64,000 nt of DNA from positions 676 to 64,675 of the forward strand of contig CAYSXR010000004.1 of assembly GCA_964435035.1 (NCBI GenBank). The letters are read 5' to 3'. Within the stretch, counting starts at the first letter, position 1. Every line of letters begins with the position of its first letter. This DNA comes from an uncultured Gammaproteobacteria bacterium. GTDB lineage: Bacteria > Patescibacteriota > Patescibacteriia > Magasanikbacterales > UBA922. Shown here in pieces: positions 5,458 to 63,552 of this stretch. The position numbers and the translations under genes were made by a program. The notes under the pieces are model-generated. The model saw nothing but the letters and a program-made list of their open reading frames with translations, was not told the origin of the DNA and made no database searches.

Positions 5458-7715
5458 TATAATTTAAACTTGTATACCACTGTCCCATCCAACACATACG
5501 CTTCTTTTTCATCTGCACTAATCGTTAGTCCAGTTGGATTGGTCCATTGGTCTGCGGTAAATTGTTTTTTGAAAGTACCTTCTTTATCGAGCATAATTAT
5601 TCGTTTTCGTGAAGGCTCGAGTATATATAGATTTCCAAATTCACTATTTGTTTCGATTAGAGTAGGAGATTCAAGTATTGGATCAAGACCTGAAATTTCA
5701 AATGGCTGTTCCTCTCCTGCAGTGAATTTAATAATTTCTCCTTTTGATGTTGCTACAAAGATATCTCCATCAATTCCAAATGCTGTGCTATTTTTGAGTG
5801 CATTTTGTGTATGGGGCGCCTGTACCCATGTAGTACCATTGTCATATCCAATTTGTGTTGGATTGTGTCGATATAGAGTACCGTTTCCTGTATCCAGTGC
5901 GTAGAGACGTCCATTGTAGAGTGCAATGTCTTTCAGTACTACTGATTGATTTGGGTAGCCGATTGTTTTTGAGATAATACTATCTGAGATGTTGTCGTAT
6001 GCTACAATTGTGTTCGTTCCTGAGATAAATACCACTTGTGAATTATCTTTTGCTGTATATCCTTGTGTGAGCTGGCGTGTAGTCTCAGCATTTTTGGTTT
6101 CTACTGTTCCGGTTAGTGTGGATATGAAATATAATGAAGAATCAGTAATTCCTGTAGCGATTAATTTGTCACCGACTAGTACTAACGAATCAGGTCTTGC
6201 GTTGGTTATCGTATCTTTAATGTCAGCTATCTTTTCAGGTGTGATTGTGGTAATTTTTTGTACCCTAATCAGGAGTTTTGCAAGCTCTGATTTGATTTTA
6301 TCAGCGTGCGATTGTTTTTCTGGAGTTTCGTGTGTGAGTGAATTGAGTAGGTTTTCAGCATCACGTAGAGACTCAAGTGCTTTGGTATTTTCTCCGTAGA
6401 GAAGATAGGACTCAACTTCTTTTTGTTTTTCATCCACCTGCACCATTTCTGCTTGGTACGTTTCTTCTGCAATAATTTCTTTTTGTTTTGCTTTCATGTA
6501 CATGACGCTACCAATAAGTACTGCAATTCCTACGATTAGAGTGAGGAGTAATATTTTTCCAAACATTCCGAGACTAGTAATTCGGTCTACTATTCTTGTG
6601 ATTGATGTCTTGTATTGTTCGATCAAAATTTTTCTGCTTCCATTATAATTACTGATGAGCGACCATAGTATGGTGATGAATTTTCCGAGTGCAAATACCA
6701 CAGTCTTTAATACATAAAAGAGTGCTCGAACAATCCATACGAGCGATTTTCCAAGCATGATTAAAATGGTATTTGCTCCGTCTTCGACTACTCCCTCATC
6801 CCTTTTTCTTTTTTTATAGCGTCCTTGTTTGGTTTCTCTGATAGTCGAAGGTCGGTCGGGAGTATCTTCGGTGTTTCGTTTCATACTACCGGTGATAGAC
6901 TTGGCAAGGTGTGAAAAAACTTTTGGTGATAAGGTTTCTTCAGTTGAGCGTGTGGTGTCGATTAATTTATCCATTGATTCTTCTGAGCCAATAATTGGCC
7001 GATAGAGGTTTTTTTCTACACGTACAGGCTCAATCATCTCTGTCCCGGTGAGGACTAGTCCACCAAATGAGTATTCAGAGGAAATTGCTTCAAGTGTTTT
7101 TTGTACTTGATGAGCGGATTGTTTTGCGGGTTTTCCGATAATCATTTTGGCAATCCGATCGCATGAGAAATATTTGATGATATGTGGTGTTGAAATATAT
7201 ACTGCTTCATCAGTCGTAAAATTTCCTTCAATAACTGAAGAAAAGAAAATATGCTCCGGATATACCACTTCATCGACAATACGAGTGAATGAAGGTCCTT
7301 CAGGGGTGGAATACGCTAGAAGTGCAAGAATATCCCCTCGATATGCAAATGAAAGTTTGTTGCCCGTAATCACTCCAACTGCGATATGGATCTTTCTTTC
7401 TTCGTCTTCAAGCAGTACCTTTGCTCGGCGATTGAGTTTTTCGATAACTGATTCAAAGTGCTTTACTTCAGGATTCTCAGCATTTTTTGTTTCGCCATCA
7501 TAATCGCTATAGTATAGTGCCTCTCCATCGGTTATCAATTCTTCAATTATGCCTAATATTTTTCCTTCAGGATGATCAATTTCTGCGAGCACAAAAAAAT
7601 ATCCCTGATTTTCTCCGTCTGGTTTGCCAGGGGAAGCGATGTGGAGGAGTACGTGGGAAAGGTGACTATTTTTTCCTTCGACAAAAAATTCGTATACTTC
7701 ACTTTTTATAGGCAT
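5457..7715 (-). CDS. Hypothetical membrane protein with an N-terminal cytoplasmic domain, central TM helices and a C-terminal beta-propeller-like repeat domain
   Basis: Long ORF with hydrophobic segments ILIMLGKSLVWIVRALFYVL and LLTLIVGIAVLIGSV. C-terminal YVTN/NHL-like repeats (GNGTLY, GDIFVAT). The ORF track start is TTG at 7769; ATG at 7715 (MPIKSEVYEF) is preferred because a promoter lies between the two. Confidence 0.55.
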   Translation of the reverse strand: MPIKSEVYEFFVEGKNSHLSHVLLHIASPGKPDGENQGYFFVLAEIDHPEGKILGIIEELITDGEALYYSDYDGETKNAENPEVKHFESVIEKLNRRAKVLLEDEERKIHIAVGVITGNKLSFAYRGDILALLAYSTPEGPSFTRIVDEVVYPEHIFFSSVIEGNFTTDEAVYISTPHIIKYFSCDRIAKMIIGKPAKQSAHQVQKTLEAISSEYSFGGLVLTGTEMIEPVRVEKNLYRPIIGSEESMDKLIDTTRSTEETLSPKVFSHLAKSITGSMKRNTEDTPDRPSTIRETKQGRYKKRKRDEGVVEDGANTILIMLGKSLVWIVRALFYVLKTVVFALGKFITILWSLISNYNGSRKILIEQYKTSITRIVDRITSLGMFGKILLLTLIVGIAVLIGSVMYMKAKQKEIIAEETYQAEMVQVDEKQKEVESYLLYGENTKALESLRDAENLLNSLTHETPEKQSHADKIKSELAKLLIRVQKITTITPEKIADIKDTITNARPDSLVLVGDKLIATGITDSSLYFISTLTGTVETKNAETTRQLTQGYTAKDNSQVVFISGTNTIVAYDNISDSIISKTIGYPNQSVVLKDIALYNGRLYALDTGNGTLYRHNPTQIGYDNGTTWVQAPHTQNALKNSTAFGIDGDIFVATSKGEIIKFTAGEEQPFEISGLDPILESPTLIETNSEFGNLYILEPSRKRIIMLDKEGTFKKQFTADQWTNPTGLTISADEKEAYVLDGTVVYKFKL

Positions 7716-55740: not shown

Positions 55741-56364
55741 ATGGCTGATTCGTCACTCGATAAACTCATGTATTCATTCGTGATGGAGGATGTCCTCAAA
55801 GGACTGTTTATCTATGTTCCACCAGGATACGTGGCATGTGTCTATGACCTTGGTCGTGGGGTATTGAAGAAGGTATTGACACCAGGACTTCATTTCAAAA
55901 TTCCTTTTTGGCAGAAAGCAAAACTTTTTAATACTCAGACATTGGAATACGGTATTTCTCGCCAGTTTAATAGTGGAAATCAAAAAGCAATGGGGGATAT
56001 TCCAATTGCTGCCGTAACTCATGATAACAAGCGAATTGCAGTCGAAGGAACGATTCTTCTTCGACTTGATATTCATCAGATCCCGATGATCTGGCAGACG
56101 ATTGGTGAGGATTTTGTAGAAAAAATTATTCGCCCCACCATCCGCAGTCGTATGCGCATGGTTGCGACTCGATTCACCTATGAAGATTTGGTGGGAAGTA
56201 AGCGTGATGCGGTGGAAACTGAAGTAAAAAATGAACTTGAACGTATTTTCTATCCTCGCGGAATCTATGTAGAAAATATTCTTCTTAGTGAAATTTCTCA
56301 GGTTTCTGCTGGAAGTGGTGCGGGAGATGCTCCGAAGAAAGAGGATCATGGTGGACATCATTAA
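55741..56364 (+). CDS. SPFH/band-7 (stomatin/HflK/C-like) domain protein
   Basis: VPPGYVACVYDLGRGV...LTPGLHFKIPF SPFH core. Confidence 0.65.
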   Translation: MADSSLDKLMYSFVMEDVLKGLFIYVPPGYVACVYDLGRGVLKKVLTPGLHFKIPFWQKAKLFNTQTLEYGISRQFNSGNQKAMGDIPIAAVTHDNKRIAVEGTILLRLDIHQIPMIWQTIGEDFVEKIIRPTIRSRMRMVATRFTYEDLVGSKRDAVETEVKNELERIFYPRGIYVENILLSEISQVSAGSGAGDAPKKEDHGGHH

Positions 56365-57232
56365 GAATACTGTTTTTATGGGAGAATTTCAGTCTGCTCA
56401 AGGGTTAGAAAATTTTCACCCTGTTGATCAATCTAAAAATGAAAATAATCGAGAGGGTGAAATAGTCGAAAACATAAGAAATAATCCATATTTTGTACGT
56501 CTGTGTAAAGGTTTTTTACGTTATCAAGAATTACTGACTACTCCTAATATCTCTGGGGAAGAAAAACAACAGTTTTTACAACGGATGCATGAATTGCATA
56601 GGATCGGCGATTTAAATGTTGCAAAACAAAATACAGAAGCTGTCTTTATGGCACCTGCTGATGTGGACGATGTCTTTGAATATGCTTTGCGTTATGCTGA
56701 AACTGGAGATTTTAACCCAGAACAGTTTTTACAATATCTTAGAAAAAATCCTGAAATTCTTATTGGTTTGTCTGAAGAGTGGAATCCAAAGAGTGGGGAT
56801 AGTAAGTTGGGTGAGTATGAGTATGTAAATAGTCTTGTTGCCTTTACTAAAAAAGATGATGAAACCATTTCGCTTCATATTCTTCCTGCAGGAACTTTAA
56901 AACCATCTGAGCTGATTACAAAGGTAGTTGAAGGTTTCCGAAAAATTGCCCATAAAATTTCTTTGGGTGAAATTTCATGCAAGCATATTGAAATGAAGTC
57001 TTGGATGCTTGGTAAGGGTCTCCAGGAAAAAATTACCCCGTTATTTTCTAAGATGGGTGATATTAACATTCATGAAATAGATCAAAACACTGAAGATGTG
57101 GTTGATATCCAGAGACTTGCATTGTTGTTTAATACGAAATCTCTTGAGCATTACTTACGCACCGGTATTCCACCTGAGGTTAGAGCGGCTGAGATTAACA
57201 GTAAAAACTTTACGCAGGCCTTCGTAAATTAA
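56348..57232 (+). CDS. Hypothetical protein (overlaps the SPFH gene by 17 nt)
   Basis: ATG at 56348 (MVDIIKNTVF...) preferred over the ORF-track start at 56288; no domain recognised. Confidence 0.45.
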   Translation: MVDIIKNTVFMGEFQSAQGLENFHPVDQSKNENNREGEIVENIRNNPYFVRLCKGFLRYQELLTTPNISGEEKQQFLQRMHELHRIGDLNVAKQNTEAVFMAPADVDDVFEYALRYAETGDFNPEQFLQYLRKNPEILIGLSEEWNPKSGDSKLGEYEYVNSLVAFTKKDDETISLHILPAGTLKPSELITKVVEGFRKIAHKISLGEISCKHIEMKSWMLGKGLQEKITPLFSKMGDINIHEIDQNTEDVVDIQRLALLFNTKSLEHYLRTGIPPEVRAAEINSKNFTQAFVN

Positions 57233-57249
57233 TAGTTTGGATATAGTAT

Positions 57250-57277
57250 AAAAGAGGCTCTTGACGCCTCTTTTTTG
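57250..57277 (+). terminator. Rho-independent terminator
   Basis: AAAAGAGGC-tcttgac-GCCTCTTTTTT. Confidence 0.8.
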
Positions 57278-57281
57278 TAGT

Positions 57282-57314
57282 GGTATATTATCACTCAGAT
57301 AATACGAGTGATAA
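57282..57314 (+). promoter_or_regulatory. hrcA promoter -10 (TGgTATATT) overlapped by a CIRCE-like HrcA operator
   Basis: TTATCACTC-N9-GAGTGATAA against the CIRCE consensus TTAGCACTC-N9-GAGTGCTAA (one change per half-site); sits 2 nt before the hrcA ATG. Confidence 0.65.
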
Positions 57315-57315
57315 T

Positions 57316-57999
57316 ATGCTTACTCCTCGAAAAGAGACTATTCTCAAATATATTGTTGAGACCTATATCAAGGAAGCCGAACCAATCGGTTCCAAGTTGC
57401 TATCGGAAGATACAGGTCTTGAAGTATCTGGTGCGACACTCCGAAATGAAATGCGAGAGCTTGAGGAAGATGGACTTCTCACGCATCCACACACTTCATC
57501 GGGGAGAATCCCGACTGAGGCAGGGTATCGGTATTATGTGGAACATTTGATGAAGCCAGAAGTGATGGGAAAAAAGATTACTGATAAAATTGGTGCAGCA
57601 TTGGAGGAACATCGCGAGATTGATCGCAAGCTCAAAATTTTTGCACGTATTGTTTCTGAAATGTGTGGCACTGCAGTAATTGTTTCATTCAAAAAAGATT
57701 CATTATACTATACGGGTATTTCACACTTTTTCTCACAGCCAGAATTTCAGGATTATTCGTTCACCGTATCGGTGTCTGGAATATTTGATACCTGTGAAGA
57801 AGTGATGCCAGAACTCCATAAAGAGTATAGTGATACATTGCCACGTATTTCTATCGGATCAGAAAATCCATTTGGAACCATGTGTAGTGTAGTGGGTAAA
57901 AAATTGGACAATGATGTGCTCATTGCAATATTAGGACCCCTCCGTATGAGGTACAATCGAGCACTTACATTACTCAATTATACTAATGATGTATTTTAA
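57316..57999 (+). CDS. hrcA: Heat-inducible transcription repressor HrcA (short, 227 aa)
   Basis: ILKYIVETYIKEAEPIGSKLL...VSGATLRNEMRELEEDGLLTHPHTSSGRIPT..GYRYYV N-terminal wHTH signature. Confidence 0.8.
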   Translation: MLTPRKETILKYIVETYIKEAEPIGSKLLSEDTGLEVSGATLRNEMRELEEDGLLTHPHTSSGRIPTEAGYRYYVEHLMKPEVMGKKITDKIGAALEEHREIDRKLKIFARIVSEMCGTAVIVSFKKDSLYYTGISHFFSQPEFQDYSFTVSVSGIFDTCEEVMPELHKEYSDTLPRISIGSENPFGTMCSVVGKKLDNDVLIAILGPLRMRYNRALTLLNYTNDVF

Positions 58000-58004
58000 T
58001 CTCT

Positions 58005-58547
58005 ATGATTATGAGCGATGAACAGCAGGGAACAATTAATAATGAGCAATTAATAAATAATCAACCGCAATCTGATGTTGAAAAGTTGACTCAAGAATGT
58101 GAGGAATACAAAACTGGTTGGCAGCGAGCGGTGGCAGATTATCAGAATTTGAAAAAAGAAATGGAATCCAATCGGCTTGATTTGTTCAATTGGAGTGAAG
58201 AGAAAATATTATCTGAGTTTATTCCGATTTATGATAATTTTAAAAAAGCGTTTGCACATCATCCAGAGCTTGATGGGGGAGATGAATTTCATAAGAAAGT
58301 GCAGAATTGGGTGAATGGAATTGGGTTCATTAAAAAACAATTTGAAGATGTGCTGAAAAATCATCAGGTTGAGGAGATTAAGGCTGAAGGAAAATTTGAC
58401 CCACAGTTTCATGAGGCAGTAACCGAAGAAGATAATGAACTGGAGCACGGATCGATTATACGAGAAGTCGAATCTGGATATACGATGAAAGGAAAAGTGA
58501 TCAAGGTGGCGAAAGTGGTTGTGTCTAAGGGTTCTATTTCAACATAA
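58005..58547 (+). CDS. grpE: Nucleotide exchange factor GrpE
   Basis: WQRAVADYQN, GKFDPQFHEAV, GYTMKGKVIKVAKVVVS. Confidence 0.9.
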   Translation: MIMSDEQQGTINNEQLINNQPQSDVEKLTQECEEYKTGWQRAVADYQNLKKEMESNRLDLFNWSEEKILSEFIPIYDNFKKAFAHHPELDGGDEFHKKVQNWVNGIGFIKKQFEDVLKNHQVEEIKAEGKFDPQFHEAVTEEDNELEHGSIIREVESGYTMKGKVIKVAKVVVSKGSIST

Positions 58548-58613
58548 TAGAACACGGATGACACAGAATTGAACGGAATTAACATGTTTCAGATTCCGCC
58601 TCATCTGTGTTCC
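58548..58613 (+). repeat. Family C structured element, copy C1
   Basis: GAACACGGATGA pairs with TCATCTGTGTTC (12 bp, one G-U), enclosing the inner hairpin CGGAAT...ATTCCG. Confidence 0.55.
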
Positions 58614-58676
58614 ATTAATAATTTTTAAGCTCAATACATATCGAACGGTATGAGTTGAGCAATCGGAGAACAGCAT

Positions 58677-59123
58677 ATGTCTCTTACACGCTGGGTCCCT
58701 ATGGATCCGTTTGCTGAGATGGAAGAAATGATGCGCTCTCTTCCCTCTGTTACCAGTAATAATACACTTGCTCAACGCGGATTTGTTCCGGCAGTAGACA
58801 TCTATGAGACCAAAGAAGCGGTCGTCGTAGAATCTCAACTTCCAGGAATCAATCCTGAAGAAGTAGAGGTAAGTGTGGAAAATGGTGTACTTTTGATCAA
58901 AGGCGAGCACAAACGCGAACACGAGGTCGAGGAGAAGAATTATTACCGCAAAGAAGTTCGTAGTGGTATGTTCTATCGTCAGGTGCCACTTCCTACTGAG
59001 GTCGAGGAGAACAATGTGTCAGCAGAATTTGAAAATGGCATATTGAAAATTACGTGTCCAAAGGCGGAATCGGTAGAGAAGAAGAAAGTAAATGTGAAGA
59101 TTGTAAATAAGACTAAGAAATAA
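58677..59123 (+). CDS. Hsp20/alpha-crystallin small heat-shock protein
   Basis: ACD core PAVDIYETKEAVVVESQLPG...VENGVLLIKGE...A.FENGILKI. Confidence 0.85.
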   Translation: MSLTRWVPMDPFAEMEEMMRSLPSVTSNNTLAQRGFVPAVDIYETKEAVVVESQLPGINPEEVEVSVENGVLLIKGEHKREHEVEEKNYYRKEVRSGMFYRQVPLPTEVEENNVSAEFENGILKITCPKAESVEKKKVNVKIVNKTKK

Positions 59124-59221
59124 AAGTAATAATATTGTTTAAGGGTATTAATCATGAGGATTGATACTTGAGCCGCTCCATCTTGATCCAGTATCTCGTC
59201 TGTACAACTTGTACTTGAATC

Positions 59222-59244
59222 GAGGGGAGGGCTGAGGGAAAGGG
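59222..59244 (+). other. G-quadruplex-forming motif in the dnaK upstream region
   Basis: GGGG-a-GGG-ctga-GGG-aaa-GGG, four G-tracts with loops of 1, 4 and 3 nt, in a 38% GC background. Confidence 0.4.
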
Positions 59245-59303
59245 TAAAAGTTAAAACGACAAAGTGAAAAAAATTTTAAATAAACTAATCACTAATTAAC
59301 TAA

Positions 59304-61241
<1,938 letters not shown>

Positions 61242-61250
61242 GTTTTCAAA

Positions 61251-61314
61251 TAGAACGCGGATTTAACGGATAACACGGGTATACACGGATTAAATCCGTG
61301 TTATCCGTGTTCTA
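61251..61314 (+). repeat. Family C element, copy C2: interleaved inverted repeats (A-B...A'-B' order)
   Basis: CGGATTTAA and CGGATAACACGG, followed by TTAAATCCG and CCGTGTTATCCG. Confidence 0.55.
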
Positions 61315-61372
61315 TTATATTTATTGGAATTGGATGCTATACTTATATCTCACCTATATTTAACTCATACAT

Positions 61373-61960
61373 ATGACCAAACAAACACGAATTTTTTCTG
61401 TAGCTATAGTCTTGGTGGGAGTCGGTATTGCATATTGGCTTATTTCTCCATTATTTGTCGATAAAGTTGTAAATGAGGATATTCCGTTTGTGTCACAAAA
61501 TAGCAATATTGCAGAACAAATTCCGGATACGGAGATCAGAGGTGATTACGGAAGTGCAATGATGGAGATGCGTGACCAAGGAAAAGAAATGACTGACTCA
61601 ATGCCATCTAGTAACGAGCCAAAAGAGGTTGCAACTGGTACATTCGTAGAAGTAGCTCATGAAGGATTCGGCGATGCAAAAATTATTGCTCTAGGTGAAA
61701 ATGAGTCGATACTTCGTTTAGAAAATCTTGATGTATTGAATGGTCCTGATTTGCGCGTGCTTCTTTCTCCAAGTACATATATTAAGGGTAAGTCTGATCT
61801 TGGAGATTATGTTGAATTAGGTGAATTGAAGGGTAATAAAGGGGACCAGAATTATGAAATTCCAGAGGGTGTTAATATTGCCAAATATAATAGTGTCGTT
61901 ATTTACTGCAAGCCGTTTGGTGTGGTTTTTAATGTGGCAAAGCTTGATCGAAGCAAATAG
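61373..61960 (+). CDS. Membrane-anchored DM13-domain protein
   Basis: N-terminal TM; GDAKIIALGENESILRLENLDVLNGPDLRVLLS...YNSVVIYCKPFGVVF is DM13-like. Confidence 0.5.
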   Translation: MTKQTRIFSVAIVLVGVGIAYWLISPLFVDKVVNEDIPFVSQNSNIAEQIPDTEIRGDYGSAMMEMRDQGKEMTDSMPSSNEPKEVATGTFVEVAHEGFGDAKIIALGENESILRLENLDVLNGPDLRVLLSPSTYIKGKSDLGDYVELGELKGNKGDQNYEIPEGVNIAKYNSVVIYCKPFGVVFNVAKLDRSK

Positions 61961-61969
61961 TTTTCAATT

Positions 61970-63079
61970 ATGTCATCAAAAGATTATTATAAAATTCTCG
62001 GAGTAGAAAAAAATGTATCGGCTGAAGATTTGAAAAAAGCATTTCGTAAGCTTGCACATAAGTATCATCCGGATAAACAAGGTGGAGATGAGGCAAAGTT
62101 CAAAGAAGTGAACGAGGCTTTTCAGGTACTCGGAGACGAGACCAAGCGAAAACAATATGATCAATTTGGTGCTGATTTCAATCAGCAGGGTGGATTTGGC
62201 GGTGGCATGAGCTGGGACGATTTTATGCGGGCTAGTCGTGGTCAGGGTGGAGCCCAGGGAGGGTTTAGTGGTAATTTTGGTGGGTTTGATTTTGGAGATA
62301 TTTTTGGTGACATGTTTGGAATGGGTGGAAATAGAGGGGGTGCACGTCAACGTCGTGGAAATGATATTCAGGTAGATATTGAAATTAGTTTCGAAGAAGC
62401 TGCATTCGGAGTGGATCGAGAAATCAAATTAACAAAAAATAATGCGTGTGACGTTTGTAGTGGATCAGGTGCTGAGCCTGGAAGTTCATTACATACCTGC
62501 GAAGAATGTAAAGGCGCTGGACAAGTAAGACGAGTGCAACAGACTATACTTGGTGCTATGCAGACAGCGGTAACTTGTCCCAAATGTAGTGGTGTGGGAA
62601 AATTTCCTGAAAAACGATGTAAACATTGTGGGGGAGATGGAGTACTCCGATCTGAATCAAAATATACGGTAAAAATTCCTGCGGGAATTTCTGAGGGTGA
62701 GGCTGTTCGATTGGCGGGAAAAGGTGAAAGTGGTGGGGCGGGAGTAGTGCCAGGTGATTTGTATATTCGTGTGCATGTCCGTGAACACAAAGGTTGGGAA
62801 CGGGATCAATACGATATTCATAGTGAAATTATAATCAATTATCCTCAGGCGGTTCTAGGAGATACTGTTCCTGTCGATACTCTTGATGGGGAGAAGAAAA
62901 TTGCAGTGCCTGAGGGTGTACAAGCAGGGCAGGTAATTCGTCTGAAGGGTTTGGGAGTTCCGCGTTTGCATGGTACAGGGAGAGGGGATCATTATGTACA
63001 TGTAAAACTTGATGTACCCAAGAAAGTTTCGAAGGCTGCGAAGAAGTTGATTGAAGAGTTGAAGAGTGAATTAGAGTAA
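61970..63079 (+). CDS. dnaJ: Chaperone DnaJ
   Basis: J-domain HPD (KYHPDK), G/F region, four CxxCxGxG zinc-finger repeats. Confidence 0.9.
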   Translation: MSSKDYYKILGVEKNVSAEDLKKAFRKLAHKYHPDKQGGDEAKFKEVNEAFQVLGDETKRKQYDQFGADFNQQGGFGGGMSWDDFMRASRGQGGAQGGFSGNFGGFDFGDIFGDMFGMGGNRGGARQRRGNDIQVDIEISFEEAAFGVDREIKLTKNNACDVCSGSGAEPGSSLHTCEECKGAGQVRRVQQTILGAMQTAVTCPKCSGVGKFPEKRCKHCGGDGVLRSESKYTVKIPAGISEGEAVRLAGKGESGGAGVVPGDLYIRVHVREHKGWERDQYDIHSEIIINYPQAVLGDTVPVDTLDGEKKIAVPEGVQAGQVIRLKGLGVPRLHGTGRGDHYVHVKLDVPKKVSKAAKKLIEELKSELE

Positions 63080-63082
63080 TAA

Positions 63083-63113
63083 AAAATCACCCTTATCGGG
63101 TGATTTTTGTTTT
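63083..63113. terminator. Bidirectional Rho-independent terminator
   Basis: AATCACCC-ttat-CGGGTGATT followed by TTTGTTTT. Confidence 0.75.
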
Positions 63114-63552
63114 ACACAATAACTAGGTGTGTTTGTAGTTCTTCTACATCATCTTCTAATCTTTCTATTCGTCCTTCGTGTCTCAAGAGTGCGTGGTTAG
63201 TTGCTGCCATCTCCTCAGTCATTTTCTTGAGTACTCCTGTTATCTCATCCTGTACTGTGAGAATAGTGTTTAAATTTTCTGGGATGTCCTTTATCTTTTC
63301 TTTGATGTCTGACACGTCGGTTTGAAGATTAAGGATTGAGGTTGCCATTCTGTCAGCTGTACTAGACAGTGTATCTACTCTTCCTGATAGGGTGTCCACT
63401 GTTCCAGAGAGTGTGTTGACCGTCCCAGTCAATTGATCCACTGTCCCTGTTAACGTATCAACTACTCCAACTGTCTTATTTACTGTTTCCTTAATTTCAG
63501 AAACATCTGTTTGAAGCTGGGTTATTGGCTCAGCTATTTTATCTTCCTCCAT
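63112..63552 (-). CDS. Hypothetical coiled-coil protein with heptad TLSGTVD repeats
   Basis: TLTGTVDQLTGTVNTLSGTVDTLSGRVDTLSS repeats. Confidence 0.45.
   Translation of the reverse strand: MEEDKIAEPITQLQTDVSEIKETVNKTVGVVDTLTGTVDQLTGTVNTLSGTVDTLSGRVDTLSSTADRMATSILNLQTDVSDIKEKIKDIPENLNTILTVQDEITGVLKKMTEEMAATNHALLRHEGRIERLEDDVEELQTHLVIV

Follow-up and report, generated by a model that had tools for sequence, protein, structure and literature searches.

The window, by which we mean the whole 64-kb stretch of DNA that was analysed, has a GC content of 40% and carries on its forward strand a heat-shock gene cluster headed by hrcA (57316–57999). The hrcA product was identified with Pfam PF01628, TIGR00331, an alignment to structure 1STZ, an AF2 model and Foldseek; it combines a winged helix with a GAF-like domain in 227 residues and has Arg at residue 47. 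On the same strand lie grpE (58005–58547, starting perhaps at the second ATG at 58011; Pfam GrpE, E = 2.3e-37), for which the gene call in L001 is 178 aa, and hsp20, encoding a small heat-shock protein (58677–59123; Pfam HSP20, E = 1.6e-23). These are followed by dnaK (59310–61241), assigned from its ORF translation and by tblastn, and dnaJ (61970–63079), whose translated ORF shows the J-domain and zinc-finger motifs and which has tblastn matches in related loci. Used as a tblastn reference, the window dnaK is 57–91% identical to the dnaK of related loci. The hrcA-grpE-hsp20-dnaK-dnaJ order expected downstream of the operator in the original prediction was recovered from the ORFs and Pfam matches, together with a gene for a DM13-domain protein between dnaK and dnaJ (61373–61960, forward strand; Pfam DM13, E = 2.8e-20). 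A motif search found no groEL in the 64-kb window. The identical hrcA locus is present in two Logan assemblies, and the hrcA gene call on the identical metagenome contig agrees with 227 aa. The named homologs of the window HrcA point to Candidatus Magasanikbacteria (Patescibacteria).

Ahead of hrcA, positions 57288–57314 read TTATCACTC (57288–57296), AGATAATAC (57297–57305) and GAGTGATAA (57306–57314); the two outer 9-mers form a perfect inverted repeat around a spacer of 9 nt. Pattern scans and the copies found in reference genomes assign TTATCACTC-AGATAATAC-GAGTGATAA as a CIRCE-type operator with the paired changes G4T and C24A. The 9-N9-9 geometry is that of the Bacillus subtilis type of CIRCE/HrcA system (TTAGCACTC-N9-GAGTGCTAA; hrcA-grpE-dnaK-dnaJ and groESL), and the arms agree with the canonical TTAGCACTC and GAGTGCTAA in 16 of their 18 bases. 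The two mismatches mirror each other, as anticipated for a variant CIRCE with one substitution per half-site, and place T:A rather than G:C at half-site position 4 (T/A versus G/C operators below). By chance, 0.02 occurrences of the variant pattern and 0.00 of the canonical pattern are expected in the 64-kb window. No second variant or canonical CIRCE was found in the 64-kb window with up to 3 mismatches allowed, and the same scans detected no internal operator before hsp20 or dnaK. The operator had been placed 2 nt upstream of a short, 227-aa hrcA; the short gene stands, but the distance is 1 nt, the homolog-supported ATG at 57316 leaving the single base 57315 between the repeat and the start codon. 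In abutting the start codon in this manner the window operator differs from B. subtilis-type CIRCE.

The best sigma-70-like site in 56900–63400 (10 of 12 matches, forward strand) consists of a -35 hexamer TTGACG (57261–57266), a 17-nt spacing and the -10 hexamer TATATT (57284–57289) with TG ahead of it; in relatives TTGAC(a/g) is kept at equal spacing. The last two T of the extended -10, TGgTATATT (57281–57289), are operator positions 1-2, and this shared TT (57288–57289) confirms the proposed overlap of operator and -10. The fusion of (tg)gTATA directly to TTATCACTC was seen again in about 25 related hrcA loci, and in about ten relatives the operator is exactly 1 nt from the ATG. Relatives also show other designs, with either the -35 or the -10 placed in the N9 spacer, or with the -10 lying ahead of the operator. 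Overlapping or following a sigma-70-type promoter is likewise a property of B. subtilis-type CIRCE, whose target operons are also alike.

The hrcA promoter -35 sits in the loop of a terminator-like hairpin that follows the preceding gene, read from the sequence as AAAAGAGGC / tcttgac / GCCTCTTTT and then TT (57250–57276, forward strand); a simple terminator scan gave no call for it. A near-identical hairpin with the -35 in its loop occurs in relative L049, and in relative L030 an equivalent layout is built on another stem sequence (ACCCTC-ttgac-GAGGGT), so the stem has been kept through changes on both sides.

Domain structure of the short HrcA

Although short, the window HrcA retains the DNA-binding region whose absence would have spoken against the original prediction. 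1STZ residues 15–94 align to the N-terminal winged helix at E = 3.6e-15, and TIGR00331 matches in two stretches, including profile positions 1–125. The ATxRN recognition helix and the HTSxGRxPT wing of the winged helix-turn-helix are both present and are invariant in the homolog alignment; the corresponding motif of the B. subtilis type, ATxRN...HTS(A/S)GRIPT, is thus conserved. PF01628 scores 47.4 against a cut-off of 22.2 (E = 3.1e-12) and covers profile positions 86–214 only, leaving 1–85 unmatched. The TIGR00331 score of 178.2 bits falls under the cut-off of 197.2, and genes of this kind are therefore mostly annotated as hypothetical proteins, the name that most database copies of the short HrcA bear. 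Among the best 120 homologs of the window HrcA all are 218–239 aa, so that this shortness is shared by at least 120 close homologs.

The AF2 model (pLDDT 90.4) places a winged helix at about residues 1–80 and an alpha/beta domain at 86–227, the latter being a GAF-like domain with a 5-stranded sheet flanked by helices. Its top Foldseek match is 1stz_A (E = 1.8e-11, TMq 0.74, TMt 0.53), Thermotoga maritima HrcA, with which the N-terminal 80 residues also align by sequence. The T. maritima protein is about 100 residues longer, the window HrcA lacking the segment between the first two GAF-like strands. A MAFFT alignment with full-length HrcAs puts the missing portion at 97–103 residues between the strands 'TAVIV' and 'SLYYT', where the window protein has a 2-residue turn instead; a 7–23-residue C-terminal tail is also absent. 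The loss of these about 100 residues and of the C-terminal tail, with the score below the TIGR00331 cut-off, sets the window HrcA apart from the B. subtilis type. 1STZ was reportedly described by Liu et al. in 2005 as comprising a winged helix, a GAF-like domain and an inserted dimerizing domain, and we take the segment of about 100 residues absent here to be, by position, that inserted domain. The dimer-contact residues in an AlphaFold model of Chlamydia HrcA, namely 152, 154, 222, 229 and 230 (PMC12154930), probably fall within the region missing from the window HrcA.

With a 2-residue turn in place of about 100 residues, pairing on the palindrome would have to be achieved some other way. 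We rate at even chances that the domain-less HrcA dimerizes in an alternative manner, and contacts between GAF-like domains (GAF-GAF) would most plausibly be the route of pairing. Naturally short HrcAs that act on CIRCE-like repeats are also represented by NF003033 / PRK03911 (profile length 264), which we take to be the epsilonproteobacterial type found in Helicobacter and Campylobacter. Membership of the window HrcA in NF003033 was rejected, with 72.8 bits against a cut-off of 248 and a match to profile positions 4–85 only.

The variant operator in other genomes

An exact scan for the 18 specified operator bases across 185,579 reference genomes (596 Gb) returned at least 120 loci, compared with about 10–20 sites expected by chance in 596 Gb by our own composition estimate. 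Genes beside the listed copies were assigned by tblastn, ORF clustering and Pfam. Among the 120 matches listed, 110 are directly upstream of heat-shock genes (hrcA-grpE-dnaK, groESL, clpB, hsp20, dnaK or clpP): 48 precede groES/groEL, 25 clpB, 23 hrcA operons, 8 hsp20, 4 dnaK and 2 clpP, the other 10 being of other or unknown context. Across loci the arm sequence is invariant and the spacer free, the signature of a protein-binding site, and the distance from operator to start codon ranges from 1 to >100 nt.

Most of the listed matches are in Patescibacteria (Magasanikbacteria, Saccharibacteria, Peribacteria/Peregrinibacteria, Nomurabacteria and Minisyncoccia). Many of the Patescibacteria matches are TPA records labelled 'uncultured Gammaproteobacteria'. 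Several genomes have more than one regulon copy (LBTN01 at L038 and L059, JACKFN01 at L066 and L061, CAZTEU01 at L099 and L029; in all three, one of the copies is at groESL), and others have a copy at clpB as well. A large set of Patescibacteria lineages normally uses the T/A operator, at the hrcA operon, groESL, clpB, hsp20, dnaK and clpP; the inclusion of clpB, hsp20 and clpP in relatives of the window is a difference from the B. subtilis-type regulon.

The closest reference relative, CAZMEW01, whose HrcA is 84% identical to that of the window, has the identical variant both at hrcA (L049), 1 nt before the gene, and at groES-groEL (L122). A groESL copy of the variant, the lack of which would have counted against the original prediction, is thus present by proxy. 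At L122 the operator (6399–6425) lies 30 nt before groES and 12 nt downstream of the -10 of a TTGACA-17-TACTAT promoter. From this relative we infer regulon-wide use of the T/A operator in the genome of the window.

The variant also precedes groESL well away from Patescibacteria, in the Roseobacter group (Rhodobacterales: Leisingera, Epibacterium, Sedimentitalea, Pseudodonghicola, Sulfitobacter and Yoonia), in Salinibacter/Salinivenus and in Helcococcus/Peptoniphilaceae. Seven Roseobacter-group groESL loci carry exactly TTATCACTC-N9-GAGTGATAA (L005, L058, L060, L089, L104, L114 and L116). The GC content of T/A loci is 56–68% in the Roseobacter group and Salinibacter/Salinivenus, 30% in Helcococcus and 44% in Peptoniphilaceae. 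The operator of Fusobacterium vincentii, a member of an AT-rich genus, is canonical and keeps the G. A literature search of limited coverage returned no account of HrcA/CIRCE in Patescibacteria, including Saccharibacteria, nothing relevant on Roseobacter, and no account of the T/A variant or of a recognition rule.

Residue 47 of the recognition helix and operator spelling

The recognition helix follows the pattern S-x-A-T-x-R-N-x-M/L-X-x-L-E, in which X is Arg47 in the window HrcA and Ala or Ser in the B. subtilis type. Residue 47 was tabulated for distinct HrcAs in front of whose genes an operator could be recognized. With T/A operators (both arms; 32 distinct HrcAs) it is R in 23, Q in 7 and N in 2, whereas with canonical G/C operators (27 distinct HrcAs) it is A in 21, S in 3 and L, M or V in one each; among these 59 distinct HrcAs no cross-over between the two sets was found. 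Six further distinct HrcAs with hybrid operators (T in the left arm, C in the right) have S in 4 and R in 2, so that hybrids go both with R47 (L130, L131) and with S47 (L203–L207). Among the best 120 homologs of the window HrcA, residue 47 is R in 109, S in 9 and H or G in one each. Four of the S47 homologs were looked up with a canonical operator predicted beforehand, and all four proved to have the hybrid TTATCACTC-N9-GAGTGCTAA, in which the right arm is canonical and the left T is kept. In a rough NJ tree the combination of T/A with a polar residue 47 occupies at least three separate positions, and the pairing of S47 with a hybrid operator arises twice within the R clade.

The Roseobacter group provides a counterpart with a full-length repressor. 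The HrcA of Phaeobacter inhibens (358 aa, passing TIGR00331) has the recognition helix SAATVRNVMQDLE, and Q occupies position 47 in 119 of the best 120 full-length Roseobacter-group HrcAs (Phaeobacter, Leisingera, Ruegeria and others), a long polar residue at the equivalent of Arg47; the link from residue to operator is here made at genus level, between Leisingera HrcAs and the groESL of Leisingera sp. ANG-Vp. Roseobacter-group HrcAs differ from that of the window in being full-length (354–358 aa), in passing TIGR00331 (298.5 bits) and in their GC-rich genomes, and their hrcA genes have no nearby CIRCE and hence no such autoregulation. Among other alphaproteobacteria, residue 47 is A in the HrcA of Methylobacterium and S in that of Sinorhizobium, where the operator is of the G4 type. 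The groESL operators of Sinorhizobium (TTAGCAGCG..GGCTGCTAA) and Paracoccus (TTGGCACTC..GAGTGCCAA) are other variants in which G4 is kept. In Mycoplasmopsis cynos the equivalent residue is Asn, yet the operator keeps G4 and its inner half-site differs. Chloroflexi-like HrcAs at L163 and L167 have K at position 47. The HrcA of Sphingomonas parapaucimobilis has Q at position 47; the one groES that could be found in Sphingomonadales, on a secondary replicon of Novosphingobium, has TTGGCACTC-N9-GACTGCCAA, which is another variant in another genus and so does not bear on Sphingomonas.

The original prediction had suggested that the operator co-varied with a truncated repressor. We inspected the region upstream of hrcA in a less biased sample of 80 metagenome loci encoding HrcA relatives. 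In this sample HrcAs of the window class (222–233 aa) have T/A operators in 8 cases, hybrid operators (T left, C right) in 2 and canonical operators in 4. Fully canonical operators accompany the short HrcAs of L136, L137, L139 and L140 and the whole of a second short class (238–265 aa), in which the operator is TTAGCA(G/T)(A/T)C-N9-GAGTGCTAA, and full-length HrcAs (335–372 aa) have a canonical CIRCE or none. Since short HrcAs occur with canonical operators, and Roseobacter-group genera with full-length HrcA carry the variant, truncation and spelling are separable and the suggested co-variation with truncation falls away. Operator spelling instead appears to co-vary with HrcA residue 47, although phylogeny confounds this relationship and the independent events are few.

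Residues A40, R43, N44 and R47 are spaced i, i+3, i+4 and i+7 and so line one helix face, and R43 and N44 are invariant in the alignment; the geometry would thus plausibly allow residue 47 to contact a base. Residue 47 would then read base pair 4 of each half-site. On the evidence of the sequences compared, residue 47 and base pair 4 are linked by a preference and not by a code. We lean towards residue 47 being a specificity determinant of HrcA for the CIRCE half-site. A broader proposal, to which we give slightly less than an even chance, is that residue 47 acts as a switch, with Ala or Ser reading G:C and Arg, Gln or Asn reading T:A. Operator and repressor would have switched jointly and independently several times, in Patescibacteria lineages and in the Roseobacter group, and a minimal Patescibacteria HrcA without the canonical dimerization domain would use another interface to control the whole class I regulon.

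Repression model and alternative explanations

The element at 57288–57314 is very probably a genuine CIRCE-type operator of the HrcA encoded downstream, and binding by HrcA is predicted to make this an autoregulatory unit, as in the B. subtilis type, where the repressor gene also stands first in the dnaK operon. From the position of the -10, transcription is predicted to start near 57296–57298, inside the repeat, which would cover the predicted start site and the whole of the short leader. HrcA bound at 57288–57314 would occlude the -10 and the start-site region and block RNA polymerase, shutting off hrcA-grpE-hsp20-dnaK-(DM13)-dnaJ. Repression would be relieved when unfolded proteins titrate chaperones, the event that lifts it in the established HrcA/GroEL model. 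The hrcA leader would be about 19 nt long, with GAGUG of the right arm, 5 nt before the AUG, as its only SD-like element. The window unit is an ordinary CIRCE/HrcA system in function; what is new is the operator variant with a minimal repressor.

It is highly unlikely that the repeat is mainly an RNA hairpin (a translational block or thermometer hiding the start codon, or an mRNA-stability element) and not a DNA operator. The palindrome does extend outward by 3 further Watson-Crick pairs (57285–57296 / 57306–57317), reaching into the -10 on one side and covering the AT of the hrcA ATG on the other, and as RNA 57284–57318 would form a 13-bp stem encompassing the AUG (-14.1 kcal/mol, z = -5.2). 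B. subtilis CIRCE is also reported to affect mRNA stability, and the whole repeat is transcribed where a CIRCE lies downstream of the -10, as at the groESL locus L122. A stable hairpin is thus possible, but a U-run is absent, and because the predicted transcript start falls inside the repeat the hrcA mRNA would be without the left arm. Furthermore, the arms are conserved as sequence, with no compensatory changes seen and a free spacer, and the position of the repeat relative to the start codon varies widely. Read-through transcripts may nevertheless fold the 13-bp hairpin over the AUG, which could, speculatively, insulate hrcA from upstream transcription. Retaining the DNA operator, one may ask whether its spelling arose as a canonical CIRCE decayed, neutrally or under AT bias, within a reduced genome, leaving a weaker site to which residue 47 is irrelevant. 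We consider this quite unlikely. The change is symmetric in both arms and identical at no fewer than 110 heat-shock loci, in several operons per genome, and the partition with residue 47 among the distinct HrcAs is perfect. The operator had been called AT-shifted, a description that does not hold, as the same variant is found in the GC-rich Roseobacter-group and Salinibacter loci whereas Fusobacterium keeps the canonical G; AT drift is therefore not the cause. In favour of decay are the 40% GC of the window, the streamlined genomes of Patescibacteria and the existence of hybrid operators with T in one arm, as drift would give, as well as the acceptance of Chlamydia CIRCE elements with 1–4 deviations as functional (PMC12154930).

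Another reading, which we regard as unlikely, is that the left-arm T serves the overlapping promoter, as the last T of the -10 or in the discriminator, with the right-arm A following for symmetry and the correlation with residue 47 arising by phylogenetic hitch-hiking. In its favour, the last T of the TATTAT -10 in L207 and L208 coincides with CIRCE position 4. In each of the six hybrid operators it is the left arm, the one nearer the promoter, that retains T while the right arm has reverted, and fusion of the -10 to the left arm is nearly universal in the T/A clade of Magasanikbacteria type. However, position 4 is not part of the 17-nt-spaced -10 of the window (TATATT), and at groESL of the closest relative the T/A spelling stands clear of the -10, so that promoter overlap does not account for the T. 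In other T/A operators the -35 falls within the spacer (L006, L019, L035, L047, L098 and L103), and the spelling also occurs at clpB, hsp20 and Roseobacter groESL sites 40–80 nt from the gene.

Among bacterial heat-shock switches HrcA/CIRCE is one of the most widespread. To our knowledge no residue-to-base recognition rule for HrcA has been published, and a PDB sequence search with the window HrcA found only the apo structure 1STZ. That a single helix residue and a single operator base pair go together repeatedly in nature offers a directly testable recognition rule. Regulon prediction would improve, as zero-mismatch searches with canonical CIRCE miss sites in Patescibacteria, the Roseobacter group and Salinibacter. 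At least one large clade can dispense with the insert of about 100 residues to which dimerization is ascribed, and an HrcA without this domain bears on the mode of HrcA dimerization and on its control by GroEL or temperature.

The hrcA promoter region and other elements of the dnaK operon

In the window, the -35 hexamer of the hrcA promoter lies in the loop of a terminator-like hairpin that belongs to the upstream gene (57250-57276). The same layout is found at the related locus L030, but with a different stem (CCCTC/GAGGG there versus GAGGC/GCCTC in the window). The gene adjoining hrcA on this side (56288-57232; 284-314 aa) gave no Pfam match. It is missing from the relatives whose HrcA carries Ser at residue 47 of the recognition helix, the position occupied by Arg in the window, and in these relatives Band_7 sits directly before hrcA.

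Within the operon, a long imperfect inverted repeat, TAGAACGCGGATTTAACGGATAACACGG ... CCGTGTTATCCGTGTTCTA, follows dnaK (61250-61320), and a related motif, TAGAACACGGATGACACAG ... CTGTGTTCCA, follows grpE (58545-58625); these may be terminators or copies of a small repeated intergenic element. Between dnaK and dnaJ lies a gene for a protein with a Pfam DM13 domain and a hydrophobic segment at its N-terminus (61373-61960), an unusual passenger for a dnaK operon.

DnaA boxes upstream of short-class hrcA genes

A perfect DnaA-box 9-mer, TGTGGATAA (TTATCCACA), was found in 13 of the 41 upstream regions (120 nt each) of hrcA genes encoding the short, insert-less repressor, namely at L012, L039, L057, L066, L090, L099, L126, L128, L133, L138 and L203-L205. 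Against a background of 7 copies per 258 kb in the same loci, this amounts to a roughly 100-fold enrichment upstream of hrcA. The boxes lie 48-96 nt upstream of the gene, positioned either between the -35 and -10 elements or immediately 5' of the -35. A search of the whole window returned no copy of the 9-mer. Since yidC precedes the hrcA operon in the genomes that carry the box, its presence could reflect either proximity to the replication origin or the action of a second regulator, both of which are possible.

Database records carrying hrcA

The short HrcA of the Patescibacteria type, together with its operon, is present on many GenBank TPA_asm contigs (CAY*/CAZ*) whose title reads 'uncultured Gammaproteobacteria bacterium' (L003, L004, L010, L013, L015, L017, L021, L022, L029, L030, L049, L122 and others). 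One example is CAZMEW01, with an HrcA 84% identical to the Magasanikbacteria-type HrcA of the window. These titles appear to be taxonomically wrong. Several PLSDB 'plasmid' records, including NZ_CP081253.1 (L209) and NZ_CP155756.1 (L219), contain the core chromosomal genes parAB, rph, hrcA, grpE and mutS, and look like chromosome pieces or chromids.

HrcA classes and CIRCE variants in other genomes

A second class of HrcA (238-251 aa), encoded at the metagenome loci L141-L154, is missing the same insert at the position of the dimerizing domain. Its operators are asymmetric, with a left arm of TTAGCAGAC or TTAGCATTC, which deviates at positions 7-8 and is directly preceded by a TATACT -10, followed by N9 and a right arm of GAGTGCTAA. 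Because this class groups with the full-length HrcAs in a neighbor-joining tree, the comparison suggests that the insert has been lost more than once. In the full-length HrcAs of L163 and L167 (368-372 aa) and of L175, the position of residue 47 is occupied by Lys or Asn; no CIRCE was found within 250 nt upstream of these three hrcA genes.

Further symmetric variants of CIRCE occur in Paracoccus denitrificans (L218; TTGGCACTC-N9-GAGTGCCAA, changed at position 3), Novosphingobium sp. RL4 (L221; TTGGCACTC-N9-GACTGCCAA), Sinorhizobium meliloti (L217; TTAGCAGCG-N9-GGCTGCTAA) and Mycoplasmopsis cynos (L210; TTAGCAATG-N9-AATTGCTAA). Drift that keeps the symmetry of the operator seems to be common, and these variants are a possible source of additional residue/base pairs, of the kind proposed between residue 47 and base pair 4 of the half-site.
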